64,000 nucleotides of DNA from Vicinamibacteria bacterium (lineage in GTDB: Bacteria; Acidobacteriota; Vicinamibacteria; Marinacidobacterales; Marinacidobacteraceae): NCBI GenBank assembly GCA_963555995.3, contig OY821641.1:2880001-2944000 (forward strand). The letters are read 5' to 3'. How positions within the stretch are numbered: the first letter of the stretch is position 1; each line of letters begins with the position of its first letter. The translations under genes and the position numbers were made by a program. Shown here one piece after another: positions 38,865-51,561 of this stretch. Below the pieces are notes generated by a model. That model had not been told where the DNA came from and searched no databases. It was given only the letters and a program-made list of their open reading frames with translations.

Positions 38865-40069
38865 CCCACATCGCCGTTGCCGAATCACTACCGCTCCGCC
38901 GAGCGCGATAGAGGCCATTGAATGGACGCCAACAAAGTAACTTTGGTCAAGTTGTTCCAAGGGGATCGTCAGTTCAGGGTCCCGCTATATCAGCGTTCCT
39001 ATGTGTGGGATTTGGACCCGCAGTGGGAACCCCTGTGGGAAGACGTCACTCGCGTTGCCGAGGGCGTCCTCGCCGGAAAGGAATCTATAGCGCCTCATTT
39101 TCTCGGCGCGATTGTCGTTTCCCAGTTACCACAGCCGACGGGGGACTTGGAAATCCGGGACGTTATCGACGGACAGCAGCGTTTGACGACGTTGCAACTC
39201 CTTATGGATGCTGTCGAAGAAGTACTCCGAGAGTCGAACCATGTTACTGAGAGTCGACGTCTTCGTAGTCTCCTGCTCAATGACGATGGACTGTTCTCTG
39301 GCGATGATCAGTTCAAGGTGCGACCAACCAATGCCGATCAGGCGGCTTTCAGAAGTGCCATGGACGACCATCGGGTCGCGAGTCCTGACACCGCAGAAAC
39401 GAATATCGTGAGGGCTCACGAGTACTTCAAGGCATCTGCACGTGCATGGGTATCGAATCTTTCGGCAACCGAAACGAAGGACCGCTTTTCCGCACTAGTC
39501 ACTGCTATACGAAACCACCTCTGTGTAGTCGTCATTGATCTCACGGTTAGCGATAACCATCACGCCATCTTTGAAACGCTAAACGCTCGCGGTACGCCTC
39601 TATTGGCATCGGACCTCGTAAAGAACCATCTTCTCCACGAGGCGGAGAGGCAGAATCTAGATGTCGAGCAAATCTACCGGGAGAACTGGAAACAGTTCGA
39701 GGATCCATGGTGGCACGGCGAGATTACGCTAGGACGCCTCCGATGGCCCAGACTTGACGCATTCCTGTACTACTGGTTGGGGATGCATCTCGCGCAGGAT
39801 ATCAACACGCAGCAGCTCTTCGGCATCTATAGAGAGTTTGTCACCGAGTCCAATCTGAGCCCCCAGAGTGTCGCATCGGACTTCGCAAGCCTTAGCAGGA
39901 CATTCCGATCCATCGAGGACGGTGAACTCTTGGCCGAGGAATGGGATTTCTTCGAGAGGCGAAATGTACTCAATCTTCGCGTCCTCACACCGCTTCTCTT
40001 GTGGCTCTTCGGAGACAAGACCGCGCCGCCAAAGGAAACCCGAAGCGTGTGTCTTCGCCTTCTCGAGAG

Positions 40070-41456
40070 GAGCTATGTCCGAAAGTGGGTGACGGCTGAG
40101 AAGGGGGTGGCGTATCGTGGGGGTTGCTGACCTTCCACATCTCCAAGGAGGAGTGATACGCCATGAAGGAGAGTACTGTTGTTCGCCTTCCCTCGCCAGA
40201 GGGGGTTGAGGACCCGCTGACGGAGGTTCTTCGAGCGGGCGCCCGCGAGTTGGTGCGGCACGCCGTGGAGGCGGAGGTGGCTGCCCTGCTGGCGGCGTAC
40301 GAGGATCATCGGACGGCAACCGGAGTTCGGCGTCTGGTGCGTCACGGCCACGGCCCGGAGCGGACGATCCTGACGGGGATCGGGCCGGTTCCGGTGCGGC
40401 GGCCGAAGGTCCGGGATCGCGGGGACAGCGGGGAGGACCGGATTCGGTTCTCGTCGAGGCTTCTGCCGCGGTTCGCGCGGCGGACGCGCTCGCTGGACGC
40501 GGCGCTGCCGACGCTGTATCTGCTGGGGGTTTCGAGCGGGGACTTCGGGGAGGCGCTGTCGGAGCTGTTGGGCTCGGGGGCATCGGGGCTGTCGCCGGGG
40601 GTGATCGGCCGGCTGAAGTCGGCATGGGAGGCGGAGCACGAGCGCTGGCGGGGGCGGGATCTCTCGGGTCGGCGGTATGTCTACGTCTGGGCGGACGGGA
40701 TCTACCTGCAGGGCCGGCTGGAAGACGAGAAGCAGTGCGTTCTGGTGCTCATCGGCGCCACCCCGGAGGGCAAGAAGGAACTGTTGGGGTTCCAGGCCGG
40801 GTTCCGGGAGAGCGCCCAGAGTTGGCGGGAGCTACTGGTGGACCTGCGTGGGCGCGGCCTCGAAGTCTCCCCGGAGCTGGCGATCGGGGATGGTGCGCTG
40901 GGCTTCTGGAAGGCGCTGGACGAGGTCTTCCCCAAGACCCGCCGGCAGCGCTGCTGGGTCCACAAGACGGCGAACGTGCTGAACAAGTTGCCCAAGTCCC
41001 GGCAACGCAACGCGAAGCAGGACCTCCACCAGATCTGGATGGCGGAGAGCCGCAAGAAGGCGGAGAAGGCGCTCGACACCTTCGCCGCCAAATACCAGGC
41101 GAAATACGGGGAAGCCGTTCGTTGCCTGACCAAGGACCAGGAGGCGCTGCTCGCGTTCTACGACTTCCCCGCCGAGCACTGGCAGCACATCCGCACCACC
41201 AACCCCATCGAGAGCGTGTTCGCCACCGTCCGCCATCGCACCGTTCGCAGCAAGGGATGCCTCTCCCACCGAACCGCGCTGGCGATGGTCTTCAAGCTGG
41301 TCACCGCCGCCAGCGAAACCTGGCGTCGGCTCAACGGCTACGACAAACTGACCCAGGTCATCGAGGGCGTCCAGTTCACCGACGGCATCCAGGCCGACGA
41401 AACCGAAACCCGCGCCGCCGCCTGATCATGCCGTCACCCACTTTCGGACATAGCTC
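40070..41456 (+). mobile_element. IS256-family insertion sequence, apparently intact
   Basis: Perfect 27-bp IRs GAGCTATGTCCGAAAGTGGGTGACGGC; flanking direct repeat TTCTCGAGAG at 40060-40069 and 41457-41466. Confidence 0.95.
40163..41425 (+). CDS. IS256 family (Mutator) DDE transposase
   Basis: YVWADG, AIGDGALG, QRCWVHK, RTTNPIES. Confidence 0.96.
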   Translation: MKESTVVRLPSPEGVEDPLTEVLRAGARELVRHAVEAEVAALLAAYEDHRTATGVRRLVRHGHGPERTILTGIGPVPVRRPKVRDRGDSGEDRIRFSSRLLPRFARRTRSLDAALPTLYLLGVSSGDFGEALSELLGSGASGLSPGVIGRLKSAWEAEHERWRGRDLSGRRYVYVWADGIYLQGRLEDEKQCVLVLIGATPEGKKELLGFQAGFRESAQSWRELLVDLRGRGLEVSPELAIGDGALGFWKALDEVFPKTRRQRCWVHKTANVLNKLPKSRQRNAKQDLHQIWMAESRKKAEKALDTFAAKYQAKYGEAVRCLTKDQEALLAFYDFPAEHWQHIRTTNPIESVFATVRHRTVRSKGCLSHRTALAMVFKLVTAASETWRRLNGYDKLTQVIEGVQFTDGIQADETETRAAA

Positions 41457-42216
41457 TTCTCGAGAGTTGGTTCATGCGGCGCATGATCTGTGGCTACCGC
41501 GCGCAGGGATACCAAGACTACCTCAGCGCGGTCCTTCGAGACGTCAAGGAACACTCCGTCGATCACGCCTCGAAGGTCGTGGCGGAGGCGCTGTCTGTCG
41601 CCGGCGCATCAGGCACCAAATGGCCGACCGACGAGGAAATACTGTCGGCTGTCCTGACTCGACCGATGTTCAGCTATTCCAGTAAGCCTAGACTCCGTTT
41701 GATTCTCGAGGCCCTTGAGGACCGGGCGCGAAACGACAGCCACGGAAAGACGGAGGACGTTCGTTGTCCAAAGGGATTGACGCTCGAACACATCATGCCG
41801 CAGACTTGGTCACACGAAGACTGGCCGTTGCCGGATTCACACGATCACAACACTAATCCCGAAGATGAGAGGGAAAGCTTGATCCATACACTAGGTAACC
41901 TAACGCTGGTCACTAACAAGCTGAATCCGGCCCTCTCAAACTCGTCGTGGAGAAACAAGAGACCCGAGCTCAGAGAGCACTCGGTCCTTTTTCTGAATCG
42001 AGAGTTAGTTGAACTCGAGTCGTGGAATGAGGACTCGATTCGCCAACGAGGTCGGAGCCTCGCGGCTCGAATATGTCGCATTTGGCCTCGAGACGAAGTC
42101 AGCGTCGACGATGTAGAGGCGTGCATAGCGGACACATTGGCATCGGCGCGAGTGAAGGACTCCTAACAGCGTAGACACGTGGTGAAGAGCCAGCTGAAGG
42201 TGAATTGGAGGTTCCT

Positions 42217-42666: not shown

Positions 42667-43101
42667 GTGAGGGTCGTAGTGGACACGAATGTCCTCGTCG
42701 CTGCCGTGTCCAGCCCGGACGGCGCCAGCCGCGAGGTGCTTCGGCGTTGCCTCCGTGGCGAGTACATCCCGCTACTGGGGGAGGCGCTCTTTCTGGAGTA
42801 CGAGGCCGTTCTTCGACGGAAGGAGCCGTTCGCCAAATCAATCGCGTCGCCTGAAGAGCGCCACACCCTGTGGGCAGCCATGGCAAATCGCTGCGAATGG
42901 GTCCGCGTTCACTACCTTTGGCGTCCCAACTTGCCGGACGAGGGCGACAACCACATCATGGAACTGGCGCTGGCCGGTGGCGCAGAGGCAATCGTCACTC
43001 ACAACACAGGAGACTTCCGGGGCGGCGACCTGCGTTTTCCCCAAGTGCGGGTCCTGACCCCCGCCAACTTGCTCACGGAGACCTCAAAATGGCGACAATG
43101 A
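42667..43101 (+). CDS. PIN-domain toxin (toxin-first TA pair)
   Basis: VVVDTNVLV, EYE, WRPNLPDEGDNHIMELA, IVTHNTGDF. Confidence 0.9.
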   Translation: MRVVVDTNVLVAAVSSPDGASREVLRRCLRGEYIPLLGEALFLEYEAVLRRKEPFAKSIASPEERHTLWAAMANRCEWVRVHYLWRPNLPDEGDNHIMELALAGGAEAIVTHNTGDFRGGDLRFPQVRVLTPANLLTETSKWRQ

Positions 43102-43346
43102 CCATTCGTATTCCGGACGACACCCACGCACGTATCAAGCGCCTGGCGCGCCAACGCGGAATGAGCGTGAACCGCCTCATCGAGGAATTGAGCGTGATTG
43201 CCGTAACCCAGCACGACGCCGAGGCGCGTTTCCGGGCTCTCGCAGCACGCGGATCGGCGCGGGAGGGGCTCGCGCTTCTTGAGAAGCTCGACCGCGCGTT
43301 CGGCGCCGAGCGCTCCGCAGGCCATTCCGAGGAAAGGCCGGCATGA
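43089..43346 (+). CDS. Ribbon-helix-helix antitoxin
   Basis: MATMTIRIPDDTHARIKRLARQRGMSVNRLIEE; overlaps the PIN gene. Confidence 0.85.
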   Translation: MATMTIRIPDDTHARIKRLARQRGMSVNRLIEELSVIAVTQHDAEARFRALAARGSAREGLALLEKLDRAFGAERSAGHSEERPA

Positions 43347-43912
43347 CCCGCGACGAGGCCTGGGCGCACCTGACGACCTGGTGCGAAACGGAATCGCTCC
43401 GCAACCACGCGCGCTCGGTGGAGATCGTCATGCGCGCGGCCGCCGGCCGCTACGGCGGACCGGATGCGGACGCCGAGGTGTGGGGCATTGCCGGGATGCT
43501 CCACGACGCCGACTACGAGAAGTGGCCGGAGGACCATCCGAACCGGATCGTGGCCTGGCTCCGGGAGCGCGGGGAGGAGGAAATCGCCTACGCGATCTCC
43601 GGCCACTACACGAAATGGGGCGTCGAGTGGAAGTCGCCGATGGACAGGGCGCTCCTCGCCTGCGACGAGCTCACCGGGTTCATCGTCGCCTGCTGCCTGG
43701 TGCGGCCCGAGGGGATCTCGACCCTGGGCGCCCGCAGCGTCAGGAAGAAGCTGAAGGACAAACGGTTCGCGGCGAAGGTGGAACGGCACGAGTGCCGCGT
43801 GGGCGCCGAGCTCCTCGGCGTGGACCTCGGCGAGCACATCGAGTTCATCGTGAGCGTGCTGAAGCCCCACGCCGGGGAACTCGGGATCACCGGCCGCCGG
43901 CTGGATTCCTGA
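43343..43912 (+). CDS. HD-domain hydrolase
   Basis: LRNH, GMLHDADYE, HP, AISGH, LLACDELTG. Confidence 0.85.
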   Translation: MTRDEAWAHLTTWCETESLRNHARSVEIVMRAAAGRYGGPDADAEVWGIAGMLHDADYEKWPEDHPNRIVAWLRERGEEEIAYAISGHYTKWGVEWKSPMDRALLACDELTGFIVACCLVRPEGISTLGARSVRKKLKDKRFAAKVERHECRVGAELLGVDLGEHIEFIVSVLKPHAGELGITGRRLDS

Positions 43913-43943
43913 GAGCGAAAACGGACCGGCCAACCGAGCGCAT

Positions 43944-44293
43944 TAGTGACAGGAGCTCCCCGCCAAGAGATGGCGTTAGTGACAGGAGCTCCGGCCAACC
44001 GATCGCTCTAGTGACAGGAGCTCGACGGGGCAAACCGGGCGAAAGTCGTCCGAAAAACCGGATTTCGGGTCGCCTGGCCGGATTAGTGACAGGAGCTCCA
44101 CCGCCGAGACGGCGTTAGTGACAGGAGCTCGGCCGCCACCGGCGTGATTAGTGACGGTAGCTCCACCACCGAGACCGCGCTAGTGACAGGAGCTCACCGC
44201 GGAATTGCCGGATTAGTGACAGGAGCTGGACCTCCCGGCGCCGGTATAGTCGCAGGAGCTCGGCGTAACCGAAGCGAATAGTGACAGGAGCTC
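43944..44293. repeat. Array of ten 15-bp direct repeats TAGTGACAGGAGCTC with 17-18 bp variable spacers (one 60-bp spacer)
   Basis: Starts at 43944, 43977, 44009, 44084, 44116, 44149, 44181, 44214, 44247 and 44279. Confidence 0.95.
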
Positions 44294-44326
44294 CGGCAGC
44301 GCGTCCGGCAGTCATTCCCCGTCATC

Positions 44327-45367
44327 GTGGCCATCCTGGACCTGCGGCAATCGCCCCCTTCGGAAGCTCCCGGCGGAGACACCGCCACCACCGGAGAGGT
44401 CGAATCCGTTCGCGAAATGATCGAGTCCGGGGAGCCTCCCGGTCTCGACCGCATCCGGCGGTTCGTGCTGAAGCCGCGCCCGCGGCTCTGGAGATTCGGC
44501 GTCGGGATCTGGCTCTGGATGGTGCGGATCGCCGAGTGGTTCGTGCGCTTTTTCCGGTGGACTGGAGACCTGGCCGTGCGGCTCGCCCGCGCCGCGAGGC
44601 TCGCCGCGTTCCTCGGGCGGCGGACCCAGAACCTCGGGGCGCGGGTCGGCGCCGTCGGCCGGAACTGGAGTTCGGCGGAAGGCCGGCTCGGAGCGGCGGG
44701 TGGGTGGCTGGAGCGATGCGGCGCGCGTCTCGTCGGGGGAGGCGCGAACCTCGCCCAGGTCGGGGACGGCGTGACCGAACTGACGACCCGGGCGGCCCGG
44801 TTCCTGGCCGGCGCTCCCGACGCCGGCAGCGGAAAGCCGCACCCGGCGAACGCCCCTCCGACGGCGACGCCGCCCCCGCCCCGGTCGAGGCGAGGCAGGC
44901 GGCGGGCCACGGACGTCGCGGCGGGTCCGCAGCCGTCCCCCGCGGAGCGCGGCCCGCTTCCGGCCGCCAATGTGGAGGACTCCCCGAAGACCGTCCCGGC
45001 GCCCCCGGTTGTCACGAGCGCGCCGCAGCCCCCGCCCGGCGACCCCCGTCCGTCGGCCGCCGCCGCCGATCCGCCGCCCCTGCCCGACGACCTGCCGTTC
45101 TACCTCCGGAACCAGATCGAACACCTCGGCCAGCGACCGCGCCGGGAAACGGTCGAGAAGCTCATTCTGGCGTTGACCGAAGATCGGGGCTGGCTGGAGC
45201 CGGTCCAGCTCGCGGCGTGGCTCGGCATGACGGTGCCGTATCTGTCGCGGCGGTATCTCGGTCCCATGACGGAGGCCGGCCAACTCGTGCGCCGCTATCC
45301 GAACCGGCCCACGCACCCGGATCAGGCCTATCGTTCGGCGCTCGGCGGCGCGGCCCCGCACCCGTGA
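44327..45367 (+). CDS. Hypothetical protein: amphipathic/hydrophobic N-region, Pro-rich linker, C-terminal winged-helix-like domain
   Basis: WRFGVGIWLWMVRIAEWFVRFFRW; C-terminal LAAWLGMTVPYLSRRYLGPMTEAGQLVRRYPNRPTHPDQAYR resembles the wHTH tail of Fic and AlbA-2/HATPase regulators. Confidence 0.7.
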   Translation: MAILDLRQSPPSEAPGGDTATTGEVESVREMIESGEPPGLDRIRRFVLKPRPRLWRFGVGIWLWMVRIAEWFVRFFRWTGDLAVRLARAARLAAFLGRRTQNLGARVGAVGRNWSSAEGRLGAAGGWLERCGARLVGGGANLAQVGDGVTELTTRAARFLAGAPDAGSGKPHPANAPPTATPPPPRSRRGRRRATDVAAGPQPSPAERGPLPAANVEDSPKTVPAPPVVTSAPQPPPGDPRPSAAAADPPPLPDDLPFYLRNQIEHLGQRPRRETVEKLILALTEDRGWLEPVQLAAWLGMTVPYLSRRYLGPMTEAGQLVRRYPNRPTHPDQAYRSALGGAAPHP

Positions 45368-45380
45368 CCGCTCCCGATCC

Positions 45381-45411
45381 GTCCAACACTACAGACAAAC
45401 TACAATTGGAC
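45381..45411 (+). promoter_or_regulatory. Candidate vapBC promoter/operator
   Basis: GTCCAA...TTGGAC inverted repeat enclosing two ACTACA copies and a TACAAT -10. Confidence 0.45.
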
Positions 45412-45427
45412 GCATCGAGGACTTCCC

Positions 45428-45724
45428 ATGGCGATCAACCTGACCCACCGGCCCGATCTGGAACACCGGATCGAACGGCTGGCCTCGCGGTTCGGAATGA
45501 ACGGGCGGGGGCGCAAGACGGCGGTGATCGAGCGGGCGCTCACGGCACTCGAGGCGCAGAACGCGCCGATGTCTCCGGAAGAGATACAGGCGTCGCTCGC
45601 TCAATTCACGCATGGCGACCAGATCGCCGCGGAACTTGCGGACGATCCTGAACTCGATCACAGCAAGCCCCTGTCCCAAGCGCTTCAGGACGTCCTGTAC
45701 GACGAATACGGCCTACCCAAGTGA
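45428..45724 (+). CDS. vapB: VapB-type antitoxin
   Basis: MAINL...KTAVIERAL...LYDEYGLPK; overlaps vapC. Confidence 0.8.
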   Translation: MAINLTHRPDLEHRIERLASRFGMNGRGRKTAVIERALTALEAQNAPMSPEEIQASLAQFTHGDQIAAELADDPELDHSKPLSQALQDVLYDEYGLPK

Positions 45725-46116
45725 TCGTCCTGGACACGTCTGCCGTGGTGGCGATCGTGCGGGAGGAACCGGAGCGGGATCGTTTCCGGGAGGAGATAGA
45801 GCGTGCCGGCGTGGTCCTGGTGTCCGCTGGAAGTTGCATCGAGCTCGCCGCCGTCGCGGGCCGCTCGGACAGGCTCCGGACAGATGTCGCCAGGTTCCTC
45901 CAACAGCCGTTCGTCAGGATCGAACCGGTCACGATGGCCCAGGCCGAGATGGCGGCGGACGCATTCGAGGCGTGGGGCAAGGGCCACCATCCGGCGGGCC
46001 TGAACCTCGGGGACATGTTCGCCTATCTGCTGGCGCGGGAACGGGACCTCCCGCTGCTGTTCAAGGGAAACGACTTCGCCCGGACGGACGTAAGGAACGC
46101 ACTCGAAGACGAGTGA
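45721..46116 (+). CDS. vapC: VapC PIN toxin
   Basis: MIVLDTSAVVAI, GKGHHPAGLNLGD, LLFKGNDF. Confidence 0.92.
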   Translation: MIVLDTSAVVAIVREEPERDRFREEIERAGVVLVSAGSCIELAAVAGRSDRLRTDVARFLQQPFVRIEPVTMAQAEMAADAFEAWGKGHHPAGLNLGDMFAYLLARERDLPLLFKGNDFARTDVRNALEDE

Positions 46117-46787: not shown

Positions 46788-48595
46788 CCGTGGACCCGAG
46801 TGACCAGCTTTTGGGCGTTTCCGACGGCCCTTCTTTCGCTTCGGAGTGCTGAGAAGGACGCGCGCGATCCGCTCGATGTTCTCCTCGGTCAGCTCCCGTT
46901 CGATAGGGACTTCGGGCGGAGGGAGGCGCTTCTCGGTCACCACGGACCGAGAACTACCGCAACTCGAACATCCCGTATCATCGGGTCTGCAACAATCAGC
47001 GAGCGCCCGCCGCCTGACTGCGGGACGCTCATCCTCTCTCGTCTTGCCGGGATTTCTTCCTCGCCCTCAGTATCGCCATGACGTTCAGAGCGTGTAGCGG
47101 CCCCGAGTGAACGCCAACACCCTCTACTACGGAGACTGCCTCGACTGGATGAGGCAATGGCCGGATCAGTCCGTGGACCTGATCTACCTCGACCCGCCGT
47201 TCAACTCCAACGCCGACTACAACATGCTCTATTCGAGCGCGGCCGGGGCGGCTCAGTACCGAGCCTTCAATGACACCTGGTATTGGGACGAAGGGGCCGC
47301 GGAGCGGTATGAGGTCTATCAGGGCGCACCAGGACGGCCTGCTCGTAGCGCCGTGATGGGGATGGCTCAGATCTTCGGGCGCTCGGGAATGCTCGCCTAC
47401 CTGACCTATATGGCGGAGCGGCTAGAGCAGATGCACCGGCTCCTGCGGCCTACCGGGAGCATCTACCTCCACTGCGACCCGACCGCGAGCCACGGGCTGA
47501 AGCTCCTCATGGACTCCATTTTCGGGAGTCGCAGTTTCCGGAACGAAATCGTTTGGTGCTACACGGGTCCGGGATCGCCCGGACAACGGCAGTTCAGCCG
47601 AAAGCACGACACGATCTTCTGGTACTCAAAATCGGACCATTGGTGCTTCAACGCGGACGCGGTAAGGGTTCGGCATCACACCAAGACGAAAGCCAATTTC
47701 AAGGACGGTCTTCGAGGGTCGGGGTTCGTAGCCGATACATACGACCTGGATTCCGGGGGGAAGATCCCGGAATCATGGTGGGCACAGCAAAAGGGAAACG
47801 GCTTGGCTATTGCCGCCCGGCAAAAGAGGCAGTATCTCGGGTATCCGACTCAGAAACCCGTCGCGCTCTTGGAGCGAATCATCCGGGCGAGTTCCAATCC
47901 GGGCGATCTTGTCCTCGATCCGTTCTGTGGGTGCGGAACTGCGATTGAGGCCGCTCACAGACTCAACCGTCGGTGGATCGGGGTAGACATTTCCTCATTT
48001 GCTATCGACCTCATCCGGCGCGAGCGGATGAAGGGCATGAAGATTCCGACCAAGGGAATCCCGCAAGATGTGGATTCCGCCCGAAAAATGGCCCGCGAGC
48101 AGCCCTTCGCCTTCGAGTCATGGGCCGTGACCCGGCTCCCCGGCTTTGCCCCGAACACGAAACAGGTAGCAGACGGCGGAGTAGATGGCCGGGGGATGCT
48201 CGTGGAGAAGCCTGAGGACTTCAATTCCCGGCTGGCGCTTGCTCAGGTGAAGGGCGGGAAGTTCAGCCTTTCGGGACTCCGGGACTTCATCGGAGTAACG
48301 AAGCGGGACGAAGCGGCGCTCGGGTGCTATGTCACGCTCGACCCCGTGAATACGCCAGCAGCGAGAGCGGAGGTCGCGGGACTCGGGAAGATCAGGGTTG
48401 CCGGGCGGGAGTTCCGGCGGATGAGCCTTTGGCCTGTCTCCGACTACTTCGACGGACGGCTCCCGATCCTCCCGAGCATGACGGACCCGTATACAGGGCG
48501 GCCGATGGCCCCGTCGCTGTTCCGCTAGGCCGTCAGGTCGGCGTAGGTGAAGCGCTTCCCCGCCATCCCTCCGTTCGCGGTAGATGGTCCATGGC
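46788..48595 (-). mobile_element. Decayed IS1595-like element carrying a passenger MTase (boundaries uncertain)
   Basis: Minus strand 48525-48566 encodes MAGKRFTYADLTA*, like an IS1595 transposase C-terminus; a small basic ORF (TEENIERIARVLLSTPKRKK) lies at the other end; no clear IRs. Confidence 0.5.
47107..48528 (+). CDS. Beta-class N6/N4 DNA methyltransferase fused to an Mrr-like endonuclease domain
   Basis: YLDPPF, YPTQKP, DPFCGCGT; C-terminal ADGGVDG...AQVKGG. Confidence 0.9.
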   Translation: MNANTLYYGDCLDWMRQWPDQSVDLIYLDPPFNSNADYNMLYSSAAGAAQYRAFNDTWYWDEGAAERYEVYQGAPGRPARSAVMGMAQIFGRSGMLAYLTYMAERLEQMHRLLRPTGSIYLHCDPTASHGLKLLMDSIFGSRSFRNEIVWCYTGPGSPGQRQFSRKHDTIFWYSKSDHWCFNADAVRVRHHTKTKANFKDGLRGSGFVADTYDLDSGGKIPESWWAQQKGNGLAIAARQKRQYLGYPTQKPVALLERIIRASSNPGDLVLDPFCGCGTAIEAAHRLNRRWIGVDISSFAIDLIRRERMKGMKIPTKGIPQDVDSARKMAREQPFAFESWAVTRLPGFAPNTKQVADGGVDGRGMLVEKPEDFNSRLALAQVKGGKFSLSGLRDFIGVTKRDEAALGCYVTLDPVNTPAARAEVAGLGKIRVAGREFRRMSLWPVSDYFDGRLPILPSMTDPYTGRPMAPSLFR

Positions 48596-48711: not shown

Positions 48712-51561
48712 TCAGAACCCGACGCGAGCGGTGCGGTTCCTGTCCCGTGACTGGGTGACCAGTTCGGACGCGATCTGCTCGGGGTCTTCGAGAAAGCCGA
48801 GCTTCTCAGCGCGCTCGTGGACCAGGGCGAAGTCGGCCGGGACCAGGCGCGTCAGTGTCCGCACCCGCGCCAGGCAATCGCCGCCGAAGAAGAACGTCCA
48901 GGCGCGGACGACGCGGGGTTCGTCGAGGAACTTGAAGGTCGCCCGGAAGAGGAACCGGCGGGCCACCGCCGGGTCCAGCCGGTCAGCGAGGTTCGTGGTG
49001 AAAGCGTAGGGCAGGTCGTGGGCCTCGAGCTGGCTCAGCATCTCGTTCACGTGGCTGATCTCCCAGTTGCGGTGGGCGCCGCGCCGGTCGGCGAGGAAGG
49101 AGTCCGCCTCGTCAATGATGAGGAAGCTGCCCGTCGCGCGCGCCTCGGCGAAGGCCCCCGCGATCTGCTGCTCGGTCTCCCCGATGTATGGGGTCATCAG
49201 TTCGGAAGCGCGCTTCGTCAGAGGATCGAGACCAATCCGCTTCGCAAGCTGCTTTGCGTACTCGGATTTGCCGCTCCCGGACGGACCGTCGAGCAGGATC
49301 CCCAGCCGGCGGCGGCCGATCTTCACGATGCGTTCGGTCAAGGCGGCGATATCCGGCTCGGCGTGGACCAGGGAGAAGTCGTACTTTTCCACCGCCTTCG
49401 CCTCGGCCGTCCGCTTCCCGCGCAGGAGCCGGGCCTTCTCCCGAACGGCGCGCCGCGCCGCATCCGCTCCCCCGCCCGAGAGCGTGGCCACGAGACCGGC
49501 ATTCCGGACCTGCCGCGGCGTGACGCGGCGGTCGGCGGCAAGTTCGTCCGCGACGGCGTCCAGGTCCGCCGAGCCGCCCGCGGCCAGCAGCTTCCGGAAC
49601 ATCGCGACCCGACGGTCCCGGGGCACGTGCTGGAACTCCAGCGAGTAGGTGAGACGGTCGAGAAAATAGGGGAGGTAGCGGCGGAGGTCGCGGATCGAGT
49701 TTGCGGTGAACAGCAGTGGCACCCGGCTCTTCTCCACCAGTCCGTTGAGCCACTGTTTGCACTCGGAGAACGCGAAATCCTCCAACTCGTCGAAAAGGAT
49801 CACGGCATCGGGCTCGTCCGTCAGCGCCTCGACGGCGTATTCGAGACTCACACGCCGCGGTACCGGAAGGCGCGACTCGGGACCGTGTTCCCGTTCTCCA
49901 ACCGAATAGAGCGTGGCCCCGGTCTCCGCGGCGAGGGTTCGGCAGAACTCGGTCTTGCCGCACCCGGGAGGGCCGTAGGCCAGGAAGGCAATCCCGCGAC
50001 CTTCGGGACGGCCGTCCCTTCGCGCGGAAAGCGCCTCCGTGAACACGCGGCGGAAGTCGTCGGCGCTCTGACCGAGATGCCCGAAGGCATCCCAGCGAAG
50101 GTCGGCGCCGACCGGCGCCCCCAGGCGCGGCCGGCGGATGTGGGTCGAGACGGTCCGCTCGTGGCGTTCGGCGAAGCGGAAGAGGTCCTCCGGGGAACCC
50201 TGAATCAACGACGTGGAACGAATGGCGCGTTCGATGATGCCGGGCGGGCACTCCAGCTCGTCGGCCAGACGGACGGCAAGCGGTTCCAGTGCCTTACCCC
50301 GCACGCTCTCGATCCCGGAGTTCGTCAGCATCCGGCGCACCACCGAGCGGCGCCGGGTGGGACTGTGCGCCTTGAAGTGAATCGTCAGATCAAAGCGGCG
50401 GAGCATCGCCTCGTCGAACCGGGAGAGGTCGTTACCGGTGAACACGACGGGAACGGCGGCGTTCTCCAGCAGGCCGTGGTTTTCCCGGCGGCCGCCGTCG
50501 CTGGACGACAACACGTCCTCCACCTCGTCGCACAGGATGGCCGCGCCGGGTTCGCTGCTGAGCAGCGCGAGCGCCATCCGGAGGCGGTTCCGTTTGTCCG
50601 CCGAGCGGTCCATCCGGCGATCGGTCCGCTCCTCCTTCCAGACGCCGCCGGGCTCGGGCTCGCAGAGGTCGTAGAGGCGGCCTCCGCACTCGCGGACCAG
50701 CGTCTTCGCGAATTCCGTCTTGCCGGTGCCTGCCCGGCCGTAGAAGAGCAGGCGGACGCTTTCGCGGGACTTGTTCGCGGCGGTGAGGAGACGGACCGCG
50801 TCCTCCCGGGCGTTGAGGTGGTCGAACGCTTCCATCTCCAGGAGCGGCTCCGGCGCGGGTGGCACCAGGCGCTCCCGGAGCTCCCCTTCATCGGCGACCG
50901 GGGGCCGGTAAACGCAATCGAACCAGCCCTCCACGTAGTCGTCGGGCTGCGCCCCGTTTCGGCTCCAGTTCCCGGCGTCGGCGATGCCGACCTCCGTCAG
51001 CCGGCGCAGCGATTTCTCGACGCGGCCCCGGGAAGTCCCGAGCAGGACCGCGCTCGCCTCCAGCGGATCGCCCAGGGCATCCTTCACGGTGTCCCAGAGA
51101 TTCTCCACCGGCGACCTGCGGTCGTCGTAGAGGCGCGCGAGCTCGAGGAGCGGGCCGCACGCCTCGTCAAGCTGGAAGCGGCGCACCGCGAGCGCCGTGG
51201 CGCGCGCCTCGGCCCCTGCGGCGGGTGGCTCGGCGACGGACCGCTCCACGGCGTCGGCCGCCCAGGCCAGGAACTCCTTTGCCTGTTCGCGCGCGGGCGC
51301 CCGGCCGTTGCCGGTCGCGCGCCGGCGGCGGGGGCGTTTCCGCCGGCCTCCGAAGGCGAAGTGGGGGTCGCCCTCGTCCACGTCGTCGAGGCCCGACTCC
51401 CGGAACTTCACCGCCAGGAATCCGGCACCCACCATCTCGAGTTCGTCCTCGCTGGCCCCGATCCAGCCAAGGAGCTTCGTTGCGAGCGGCTTGTCCCGCA
51501 GGGCGCGGTGGAGCGCGGCCATCAGGTAGCCGCGGGTCAGGAAACGGTCGTACTTCTTCAA
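48712..51561 (-). CDS. AAA+ ATPase with three AAA modules
   Basis: Walker A GRAGTGKT, GPPGCGKT, GPSGSGKS; Walker B ILCDE, ILFDE, LIIDE. Confidence 0.9.
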   Translation of the reverse strand: MKKYDRFLTRGYLMAALHRALRDKPLATKLLGWIGASEDELEMVGAGFLAVKFRESGLDDVDEGDPHFAFGGRRKRPRRRRATGNGRAPAREQAKEFLAWAADAVERSVAEPPAAGAEARATALAVRRFQLDEACGPLLELARLYDDRRSPVENLWDTVKDALGDPLEASAVLLGTSRGRVEKSLRRLTEVGIADAGNWSRNGAQPDDYVEGWFDCVYRPPVADEGELRERLVPPAPEPLLEMEAFDHLNAREDAVRLLTAANKSRESVRLLFYGRAGTGKTEFAKTLVRECGGRLYDLCEPEPGGVWKEERTDRRMDRSADKRNRLRMALALLSSEPGAAILCDEVEDVLSSSDGGRRENHGLLENAAVPVVFTGNDLSRFDEAMLRRFDLTIHFKAHSPTRRRSVVRRMLTNSGIESVRGKALEPLAVRLADELECPPGIIERAIRSTSLIQGSPEDLFRFAERHERTVSTHIRRPRLGAPVGADLRWDAFGHLGQSADDFRRVFTEALSARRDGRPEGRGIAFLAYGPPGCGKTEFCRTLAAETGATLYSVGEREHGPESRLPVPRRVSLEYAVEALTDEPDAVILFDELEDFAFSECKQWLNGLVEKSRVPLLFTANSIRDLRRYLPYFLDRLTYSLEFQHVPRDRRVAMFRKLLAAGGSADLDAVADELAADRRVTPRQVRNAGLVATLSGGGADAARRAVREKARLLRGKRTAEAKAVEKYDFSLVHAEPDIAALTERIVKIGRRRLGILLDGPSGSGKSEYAKQLAKRIGLDPLTKRASELMTPYIGETEQQIAGAFAEARATGSFLIIDEADSFLADRRGAHRNWEISHVNEMLSQLEAHDLPYAFTTNLADRLDPAVARRFLFRATFKFLDEPRVVRAWTFFFGGDCLARVRTLTRLVPADFALVHERAEKLGFLEDPEQIASELVTQSRDRNRTARVGF

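Follow-up and report, generated by a model that had tools for sequence, protein, structure and literature searches.

What is an array of ten short, evenly spaced DNA words doing directly upstream of a winged-helix gene? The question was raised by a 64,000-nucleotide stretch of a Vicinamibacteria bacterium (the window; chromosomal, 2.88–2.94 Mb of a 3.80-Mb contig; source genome G000), in which the original prediction saw either an iteron- or centromere-like platform for many copies of one protein, or a transcribed array cut into small RNAs. Below, the repeats at 43944–44293 are called the window array, the genomes of relatives carry other G numbers, and loci carry L numbers. The analysis indicated that the window array belongs to a real, conserved, and apparently undescribed family of arrays and genes; a literature search that lay largely outside the subscription journals returned no paper on this family or layout.

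Phased direct repeats precede the winged-helix gene

All ten predicted copies were found, starting at 43944, 43977, 44009, 44084, 44116, 44149, 44181, 44214, 44247, and 44279, seven of them exact and three variant (one with one mismatch, two with two). By comparison, shuffled sequence held a mean of 0.80 and a maximum of 3 matches to the 15-bp word when ≤3 mismatches were allowed. The periods (33, 32, 75, 32, 33, 32, 33, 33, and 32 bp) and the 33 bases between the last copy and the GTG at 44327 were also as claimed. Stop codons occurred in all three forward frames of 43926–44326 (10, 6, and 6), in agreement with the prediction, and in the three reverse frames as well (5, 3, and 3); both strands are therefore non-coding. 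The word is asymmetric, its copies forming direct repeats, and the core terminates in a six-base palindrome. The −10-like hexamer described earlier is present at 44245–44250, but a sigma-70 scan of 43300–45600 returned 0 promoter-like sites. Contigs from public runs (X1–X3) matched portions of the window array with 0–2 differences, all within one study that may include the source sample. The features of the locus are listed in Table 1.

Table 1. Features at and around the window array (window coordinates).
Feature	Coordinates	Strand	Basis or remark
Conserved HD-domain gene; cassette inserted behind it	43343..43912	+	Context only
Lead-in to the first unit, resembling a spacer; marks the 5′ boundary of the mobile cassette	43926..43943	+	Repeat register; 91% like unit 3; start of G014 alignment
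Ten 15-bp direct repeats, period 32–33 bp; likely winged-helix binding sites	43944..44293	+	Cores 93%, spacers 50%
60-bp spacer that creates the 75-bp (7-turn) interval, hairpin inside	44024..44083	+	Homologous interval in G014 106 bp, about 10 turns
33-bp leader from array to start codon	44294..44326	+	Promoter match: none found
Gene for 346-aa protein: amphipathic helices, Pro-rich linker, winged helix	44327..45367	+	GTG start inferred from paralogues
N-terminal domain: conserved PPGL motif and basic Trp-rich amphipathic helices, with long helices after them	44405..44824	+	102–103 degree periodicity
Proline-rich linker, poorly conserved	44825..45076	+	
Winged-helix domain, kin to C-terminal tail of Fic and AlbA_2-HATPase_c_4 proteins	45077..45340	+	
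Small gene and PIN-domain gene, vapBC-like pair	45428..46116	+	Context only; present in relatives without the cassette

Mean pairwise identity within the window array was 93% for the cores and 50% for the eight short spacers, compared with 45% for shuffled spacers (0/100 shuffles as high as the real value). Since a decaying minisatellite would lose cores and spacers alike, this difference argues that the core is selectively kept. The related spacer classes described earlier do exist, although they are weak, the closest pair agreeing at 14 of 17 positions.

Conservation of helical phase across the long interval, also predicted, was seen with a helix of 10.8 bp per turn (R 0.97) and disappeared with one of 10.5 (R 0.04). 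Therefore, a platform on one DNA face requires underwound DNA, whereas on relaxed B-DNA the sites would wind round the helix. Negatively supercoiled DNA in vivo has a helical repeat near 11 bp.

The encoded protein joins a Fic-tail winged helix to a helical domain of no matched family

For the 346-aa gene an alternative start lies at the ATG at 44417. The winged helix was modelled with a pLDDT of 94.9, and its top match was a Fic-protein tail (4RGL), both by sequence profile (E 0.006) and by fold; in Foldseek, 4RGL ranked first (prob 1.00, E 1.3e-3), MarR/ArsR-type folds came next, and the model has the winged-helix fold with a Pro-rich wing of the 4RGL type. Against PF21247 (Fic-like_C) the window domain scored 17.8 bits, below the 27-bit curated cut-off, and the paralogues of G000 scored 22–24 bits; some family members bear a precomputed PF21247 label. 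Atlas leads for this domain reached 0.84–0.85, below the Atlas mark of 0.9. Compared with G014, the domain had a dN of 0.073 and a dS of 0.639, and dN/dS was <0.4 in six of seven pairs and about 0.9 in one close pair. Judged from these substitution rates, the winged helix is under purifying selection. An entropy listing of its columns failed to isolate specificity residues.

The N-terminal domain, rich in Ala, Arg, Gly, and Trp, gave no family match in Pfam, Atlas, or Foldseek. Among 38 members, no transmembrane segment was found in it (highest 19-residue hydropathy 1.52), and the best 18-residue hydrophobic moment averaged 0.64 with a net charge of +3.8 (22/38 above 0.6), the peak of the window protein itself being only 0.51; helical periodicity was 101–103 degrees. 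A single-sequence model gave one long helix (pTM 0.34), and a homodimer prediction with a score of 0.00 weighs neither way. Searches of Rfam, NCBIfam, PADLOC, and PHROGs with array or protein returned nothing informative.

G000 holds six paralogues, five words, and many orphan arrays

Six paralogues are encoded in G000, each beside an array, and five different words are used. Four of them have an upstream array with a 32–33-bp period and two have a downstream 20–21-bp array in the opposite orientation. The two closest paralogues (65% identical) share a word with a two-base variant, while the other four have four other words.

The original prediction treated the window array singly, yet five more arrays of its word stand elsewhere in the chromosome, giving six arrays of 10–14 copies at 408, 540, 1102, 2320, 2924, and 3195 kb. 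All 69 one-mismatch matches to the degenerate window word lay inside these six arrays and none stood alone. Some of the six have near-identical spacers, and one mixes 21-bp and 32–33-bp periods. Each of the words also forms orphan arrays, so that G000 holds 25 arrays in total (about 7.6 kb, including one array without an identified gene).

Eleven of the 19 orphans lie between convergent genes, compared with 205 of 1113 gaps (18% expected; p 1.4e-4; rough gene calls), a preference that excludes them as the promoter operators of some regulon. At least 7 of the 19 border restriction, IS, or nuclease-ATPase genes, a count that carries no random control. The 25 arrays were not biased toward origin or terminus (Rayleigh p ~0.63). 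The 1102-kb orphan has counterparts at the same position in G007 and G015 (flanks 87–88% identical), with an intact core and with copy numbers of 12, 11, and 5 in the three genomes. A search at protein and DNA level found a gene relic beside 0/19 orphans, which speaks against their being relics of deleted cassettes in G000; in G002, one gene relic with three stops stands beside an array.

Several further observations were made. Locus L119 (G000:C1:114458-114790) has 11 copies with alternating 33/31-bp periods, and its word matches no adjacent winged-helix gene of G000. At L112 (G000:C1:914439-916665), an AlbA_2-HATPase_c_4 gene is divergent across the array from the 914-kb paralogue, possibly a trace of an ancestral link. 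Strictly alternating 21- and 32-bp periods, that is, 53-bp five-turn dimers, occur at L109 (G000:C1:1260295-1260765) and on G002 contig C131; one alternating 21/32-bp array is >1.7 kb long, and the 53-bp unit is near the 52-nt period of Firmicutes repeats. A large repeated region with very strong negative GC skew, probably giant repetitive reverse-strand genes, spans about 3.33–3.42 Mb of G000:C1, and tandem 80–86-bp hairpin-rich repeats, unrelated to the phased arrays, occur at many sites of G000:C1 (e.g., 643, 751, 1890, and 2805 kb).

Words follow the winged-helix clade across the family

The winged-helix domain was found in 22 of 28 family genomes with 1–8 matches each; since the other six lack it, the gene is not a core segregation factor. 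The full protein was found in 0/16 genomes of two sister families, and distant domain matches occurred in 6 of 250 genomes of the phylum. The loci examined held 75 domain matches, of which the 69 that were near-complete and first in their locus formed the analysed set.

Phased arrays beside homologues, and a word co-varying with the winged helix, were the two checks named in the original prediction, and both came out in its favor. An adjacent array of ≥4 copies was detected at 57 of the 69 loci, compared with 27 of 500 random G000 genes; the nearest array was upstream in 41 of the 57 and downstream of the stop in 16. About half of the 12 genes without a detected array have short flanks. In 44 of the 57 cases, the closest winged helix from another genome is accompanied by a like word (chance 0.11), that is, the word follows the winged-helix clade. 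Words were shared by 79–100% of pairs with ≥65% domain identity, by 4–6% of pairs below 55%, and by 9% of same-genome paralogues. These figures use automatically derived motifs, some wrong picks included. Domain and word distances were correlated (Mantel rho 0.21, reached by 0/1000 permutations), with a significance that is overstated because kin are not independent. The window clade (L006, L007, and L024) was supported at 100/98. Thus, the claim of a multi-copy binding platform for the adjacent winged-helix protein gained support, while its strict iteron or centromere part did not.

Among the 13 nearest-neighbour pairs without a like word, L051 and L060 are detector errors, while L052 and L020/L057 appear genuine; the recognition-helix string of L020 is identical to that of the 914-kb paralogue, yet their words differ. 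At L052 (G013) and L086 (G001), 33–60 copies of one word precede a complete or fragmentary winged-helix gene that belongs to another clade, as swapped or recombined cassettes would. Single-linkage motif clusters placed on the tree chained several words into one group (m0), and the change counts drawn from them were discarded.

Column conservation within arrays averaged 0.97 in the core and 0.69 in the spacer, the core window being the best-kept one by choice. Of 550 spacings in the family, 473 were 19–22 or 31–34 bp (83 at 19–22 bp) and 23 were 23–30 bp, with a best fit of 10.7 bp per turn; true inserts measured 75, 106, 42, and 52 bp, many other long gaps being missed copies. As read from the compared genomes, these data show each winged-helix clade to have its own word, with a spacing that keeps whole turns of ~10.7 bp.

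Array and gene form one mobile cassette

The cassette is ~1.45 kb long. It was absent behind the HD-domain gene in all nine relatives examined, a tenth locus being cut by a contig end. In G014, a cassette that aligns with window positions 43926–45352 (73% over 1518 columns) occupies the site corresponding to the 3195-kb paralogue of G000. Because the cassette sits elsewhere in G014 and is absent from the HD site in 9/9 relatives, array and gene move together, and the alignments show them as a single cassette that moved and duplicated. Spacers of the G014 and window arrays are homologous in the same order, with the cores kept far better between the two species. A relative of the cassette was found on sponge metagenome contigs (X5), while a short-pattern scan of JGI metagenome and viral contigs, which reaches close relatives only, found no relative of the window protein.

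Neighbours of the cassette include a GmrSD gene that an IS256-type transposase interrupts, two PIN toxin–antitoxin-like pairs, and a methylase-Mrr gene. In detail, the GmrSD-type restriction gene spans 38922–42166, with GmrSD_N before and GmrSD_C after the IS256-family transposase (40163–41425); the PIN-domain pairs at 42667–43346 and 45428–46116 flank the HD gene and the cassette; and a 949-aa protein with three AAA ATPase stretches (48712–51561, reverse strand) adjoins the methylase-Mrr fusion at 47107–48528. The site behind the HD gene is an insertion hotspot, with different small modules in relatives and without a visible recombinase.

Arrays depend only partly on the presence of the gene

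The word of the 2.59-Mb paralogue forms seven arrays in G000, the only genome with that paralogue, and none in 27 relatives. For the word of L068–L078, seven genus genomes in ≤20 contigs were compared, and arrays were present in 4/4 with the gene and 0/3 without it; the word was also seen in six fragmented MAGs without a gene found (five re-searched). Two other words are most amplified in gene-bearing genomes, yet they also occur in the near-closed G009 and G013 without the matching clade; the BLAST matches for these words include cross-matches between words. Arrays of the window word were seen in G007, G015, and G002, although no intact cognate gene was found in these genomes; either arrays can outlast their gene, or the gene may have escaped assembly there.

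Distant relatives carry the repeats inside the gene

A winged-helix profile collected 2687 representatives at E ≤0.001, and the N-terminal domain was present in 32 of 136 newly listed ones. Among 65 others with ≥40 residues before the domain, strong repeats immediately preceded it in 26, all with a period of seven residues, and 9 of 15 long representatives scanned had AlbA_2 and/or HATPase_c_4 domains. Genes of this AlbA_2-ATPase type have DNA repeats of 21–22 and 43–44 bp inside the gene, while more distant genes have 12-bp repeats. Invariant repeat columns were spread evenly over codon positions (17, 20, and 19), as recent duplication would also give. In the coding repeat of L123, the last 9 of 15 bases are those of the window core in the same orientation. 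To judge from these relatives, the array likely began within the gene, at a two-turn spacing and next to its reader, and was later displaced to a position outside the gene, its spacing growing to three turns. If so, the low-complexity 7-residue repeats of many AlbA_2-ATPase–winged-helix proteins would be DNA sites for their own tail rather than protein features.

A proposed landing pad for a tethering, autorepressing protein

The array probably serves as a multi-site landing pad whose 15-bp word would be read by the winged helix, one per repeat and head to tail, so that about ten proteins would load on each array. Binding of the repeats by the winged helix is probable, given the array–gene association and the co-variation of the word. 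Fic-tail helix-turn-helix domains bind DNA, CccR doing so at its own promoter, in the available portions of two reports (PMC9755527; PMC10628234). Loading on an array that fills the whole intergenic space would repress the gene and buffer the protein level, and we consider such repression of its own gene somewhat more probable than its absence.

The many weak amphipathic helices, lined up on one side of underwound DNA, could then act as a multivalent membrane grip of the sort that RocS requires; as excerpted, PMC11500499 states that several amphipathic helices together are needed for membrane binding by RocS. Home and orphan arrays would thereby become motor-less tether points, a part of the model that we place a little below even. 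Paralogues would keep private words to avoid occupying each other's arrays, the module would have arisen from AlbA_2-ATPase–winged-helix genes with 21-bp repeats in a coding linker, and the three-turn period may give the long linker and the helical domain the space they need. As a whole, this tethering and autorepressing landing pad stands at close to an even chance.

It is less likely, and rather doubtful, that the arrays constitute a satellite-DNA system, in which paralogous binders, each co-evolving with its private word, gather spreading kilobase arrays at the membrane without a motor. If true, bacteria would possess their own equivalent of satellite DNA with its binding proteins, derived from 21-bp repeats within Schlafen-ATPase genes, and constant-size bacterial tandem repeats would have a name for their long-proposed protein partner. 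Tethering, if real, would be a further motor-less means of chromosome positioning. The family would also offer more than 12 naturally orthogonal pairs of winged helix and 15-bp word, with a code readable from sequence.

Other explanations of the arrays

Unlike the landing pad, plain autoregulation would let the array set only the protein level, with the N-terminal helices dimerising or binding a partner and the orphans arising as by-products or decoys. The upstream position of the nearest array at 41/57 genes, the window array filling the space to 33 bp before the start, the heptad-like N-terminal periodicity, which suits a coiled coil, and the autorepression of CccR via its Fic-tail HTH (PMC9755527, available text) are all consistent with it. 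However, it leaves unexplained the 16/57 nearest arrays downstream of the stop, the 11/19 orphans between convergent genes, without a promoter there, the orphan kept with an intact core at one site in three species, and the length of some arrays, which extend to kilobases. A protein that regulates nothing but itself would also lack an evident use. We consider it unlikely.

A DNA-held toxin is more unlikely still. Here the basic amphipathic domain would damage the membrane and the arrays would keep the protein bound until their DNA is lost or degraded, through phage attack or loss of the cassette, as in an addiction or abortive-infection module whose antitoxin is DNA. The setting of a mobile accessory cassette among toxin–antitoxin and restriction genes suits such a role, as do the orphans bordering restriction, IS, or nuclease-ATPase genes (at least 7/19, no random control), the Schlafen AlbA_2 domain of the ancestors, the greater number of arrays where the gene is present, and the switching of CbFic2 activity by DNA binding described in the accessible part of PMC10628234. 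Nevertheless, the window protein had no PADLOC match and no transmembrane segment, several genes are without an adjacent array, and up to eight paralogues coexist.

That the arrays are neutral minisatellites hitch-hiking with a gene whose product does not read the word is improbable. Because the gene and its array are physically linked, shared descent alone could indeed make them co-vary. Units within several arrays are nearly identical, as recent tandem amplification would leave them, neutral DNA is tolerated in convergent gaps, and arrays persist without the gene. Against neutrality stand the cores that outlast the spacers within one array, the length changes that keep whole helical turns, and the many unrelated words found beside one domain family, even within the coding region of distant relatives.

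It is highly improbable that the array is the iteron origin or the partition site of a mobile element that integrated, the protein being its initiator or centromere binder. Such a reading would fit the phased direct repeats next to the winged-helix gene, the words kept private in the manner of incompatibility groups, and the past movement of the cassette. But the ~1.45-kb cassette has no recombinase, ATPase, or AT-rich region; no initiator, melting region, ParA, or TubZ lies alongside; the scan for close relatives found none in viral contigs; and most arrays are orphans far from the gene, 0/19 with a gene relic.

A transcribed array cut into ~32-nt RNAs, as CRISPR-like or TIGR-like guides or regulatory RNA, hardly deserves credence: although the window spacers vary and both strands of the array fold more stably than shuffled sequence (z −3.0 and −2.4), the palindromic core end, by which copies pair on either strand, can explain the folding, the spacers are inherited vertically in order and are near-identical in sister arrays, 20–21-bp periods leave spacers of only 5–6 bp, Rfam gave no match, the spacer search gave no plasmid match and one phage match (43 bp, E 0.1), no Nop-domain gene was found, and the cas1 of G000, located 1.46 Mb into the contig, adjoins an unrelated array with a period of 61 bp.

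Comparison with known systems

CRISPR arrays have unique spacers of ~26–45 bp acquired from foreign DNA. The 17–18-bp spacers of the window array are homologous in order to those of G014, so acquisition of the CRISPR type is ruled out; near-identity in sister arrays and the want of a credible phage or plasmid match led to the same rejection. Sharing of a CRISPR repeat was likewise rejected, by the Rfam result and by the unrelated array beside cas1 (G000:C1:1460951-1466199, a 67-copy CRISPR array). TIGR-Tas systems comprise a Nop-domain Tas protein and 36-nt dual-repeat units; PF01798 was not found in the genome (93% complete), and each 32–33-bp unit has one repeat. An iteron replicon is a mobile replicon with a Rep initiator and an AT-rich unwinding region, whereas the array is chromosomal, 2-kb windows have 65–70% GC, and no Rep family was matched. 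A direct-repeat site upstream of a candidate binder gene is a trait shared with partition loci; type I, II, and III loci were nevertheless rejected, because no NTPase gene was found among the window neighbours (HD, RHH/PIN, and PIN) or among the genes scanned beside the other paralogues.

The likeness to TubR/tubC, of type III partition, is that of a winged-helix protein with direct repeats clustered in front of the gene that encodes it; TubR forms a filament and represses the operon, as far as the available text of PMC5016525 goes. That system differs in its TubZ partner, whereas here no TubZ or other NTPase is alongside, the array is chromosomal with a 32–33-bp period, orphan arrays exist, and the protein has an extra N-terminal domain.

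RocS of Streptococcus pneumoniae, pSK1 Par, and RacA/ram join a winged helix and a coiled-coil region in one protein without a motor ATPase; the RocS amphipathic helix needs multivalency for membrane binding, and RacA binds repeated centromere-like sites (PMC11500499, in the portion consulted). Membership of this group was rejected, since in its members a MerR-type winged helix at the N-terminus leads into a coiled coil, an order reversed here, where a domain of Fic-tail type stands at the C-terminus; in addition, the gene here is accessory, with 1–8 paralogues and long phased arrays spread without origin bias.

The C-terminal HTH of CccR (Yersinia pseudotuberculosis) and CbFic2 (Coxiella burnetii) is of the same broad kind, and CccR represses its own promoter via this tail (PMC9755527, PMC10628234, both as available in part). 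In contrast to both, the protein here has no Fic domain; neither Fic enzyme is described in those parts with tandem arrays, CccR binding one inverted pair as a dimer and CbFic2 being assayed on random DNA. AlbA_2 (Schlafen)-HATPase_c_4-winged-helix proteins (PF04326, PF13749, PF21247) share the C-terminal domain, but their repeats are coding and intragenic, with enzymatic domains present and the amphipathic domain absent. A preprint (10.1101/2025.09.30.679098) reports, in its available text, AlbA_2-wHTH genes near type I CRISPR loci without such repeats.

The nearest description is that of Subirana and Messeguer (PMC8161180), who, in the accessible part of their paper, reported Bacillus tandem repeats of constant size and variable sequence (20–21 and 52 nt), noted that 20–21 nt equals two helical turns, and proposed as binder a polymerising protein of no known identity. 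Alike are the several non-coding families per genome, each with one period, a short conserved word, and a variable remainder, as also found here. The main period here is instead 32–33 bp, or three turns, although 20–21 and mixed 21+32 (=53) also occur, and a candidate binder stands beside each family; the likeness is one of description. The present family makes testable why some bacteria keep fixed-length, helically phased, sequence-variable repeats of the kind described there. Compared with all of these systems, it is a variant of the binder-plus-direct-repeat design, distinguished by private words, chromosome-wide orphan arrays, and an amphipathic domain of no known family.
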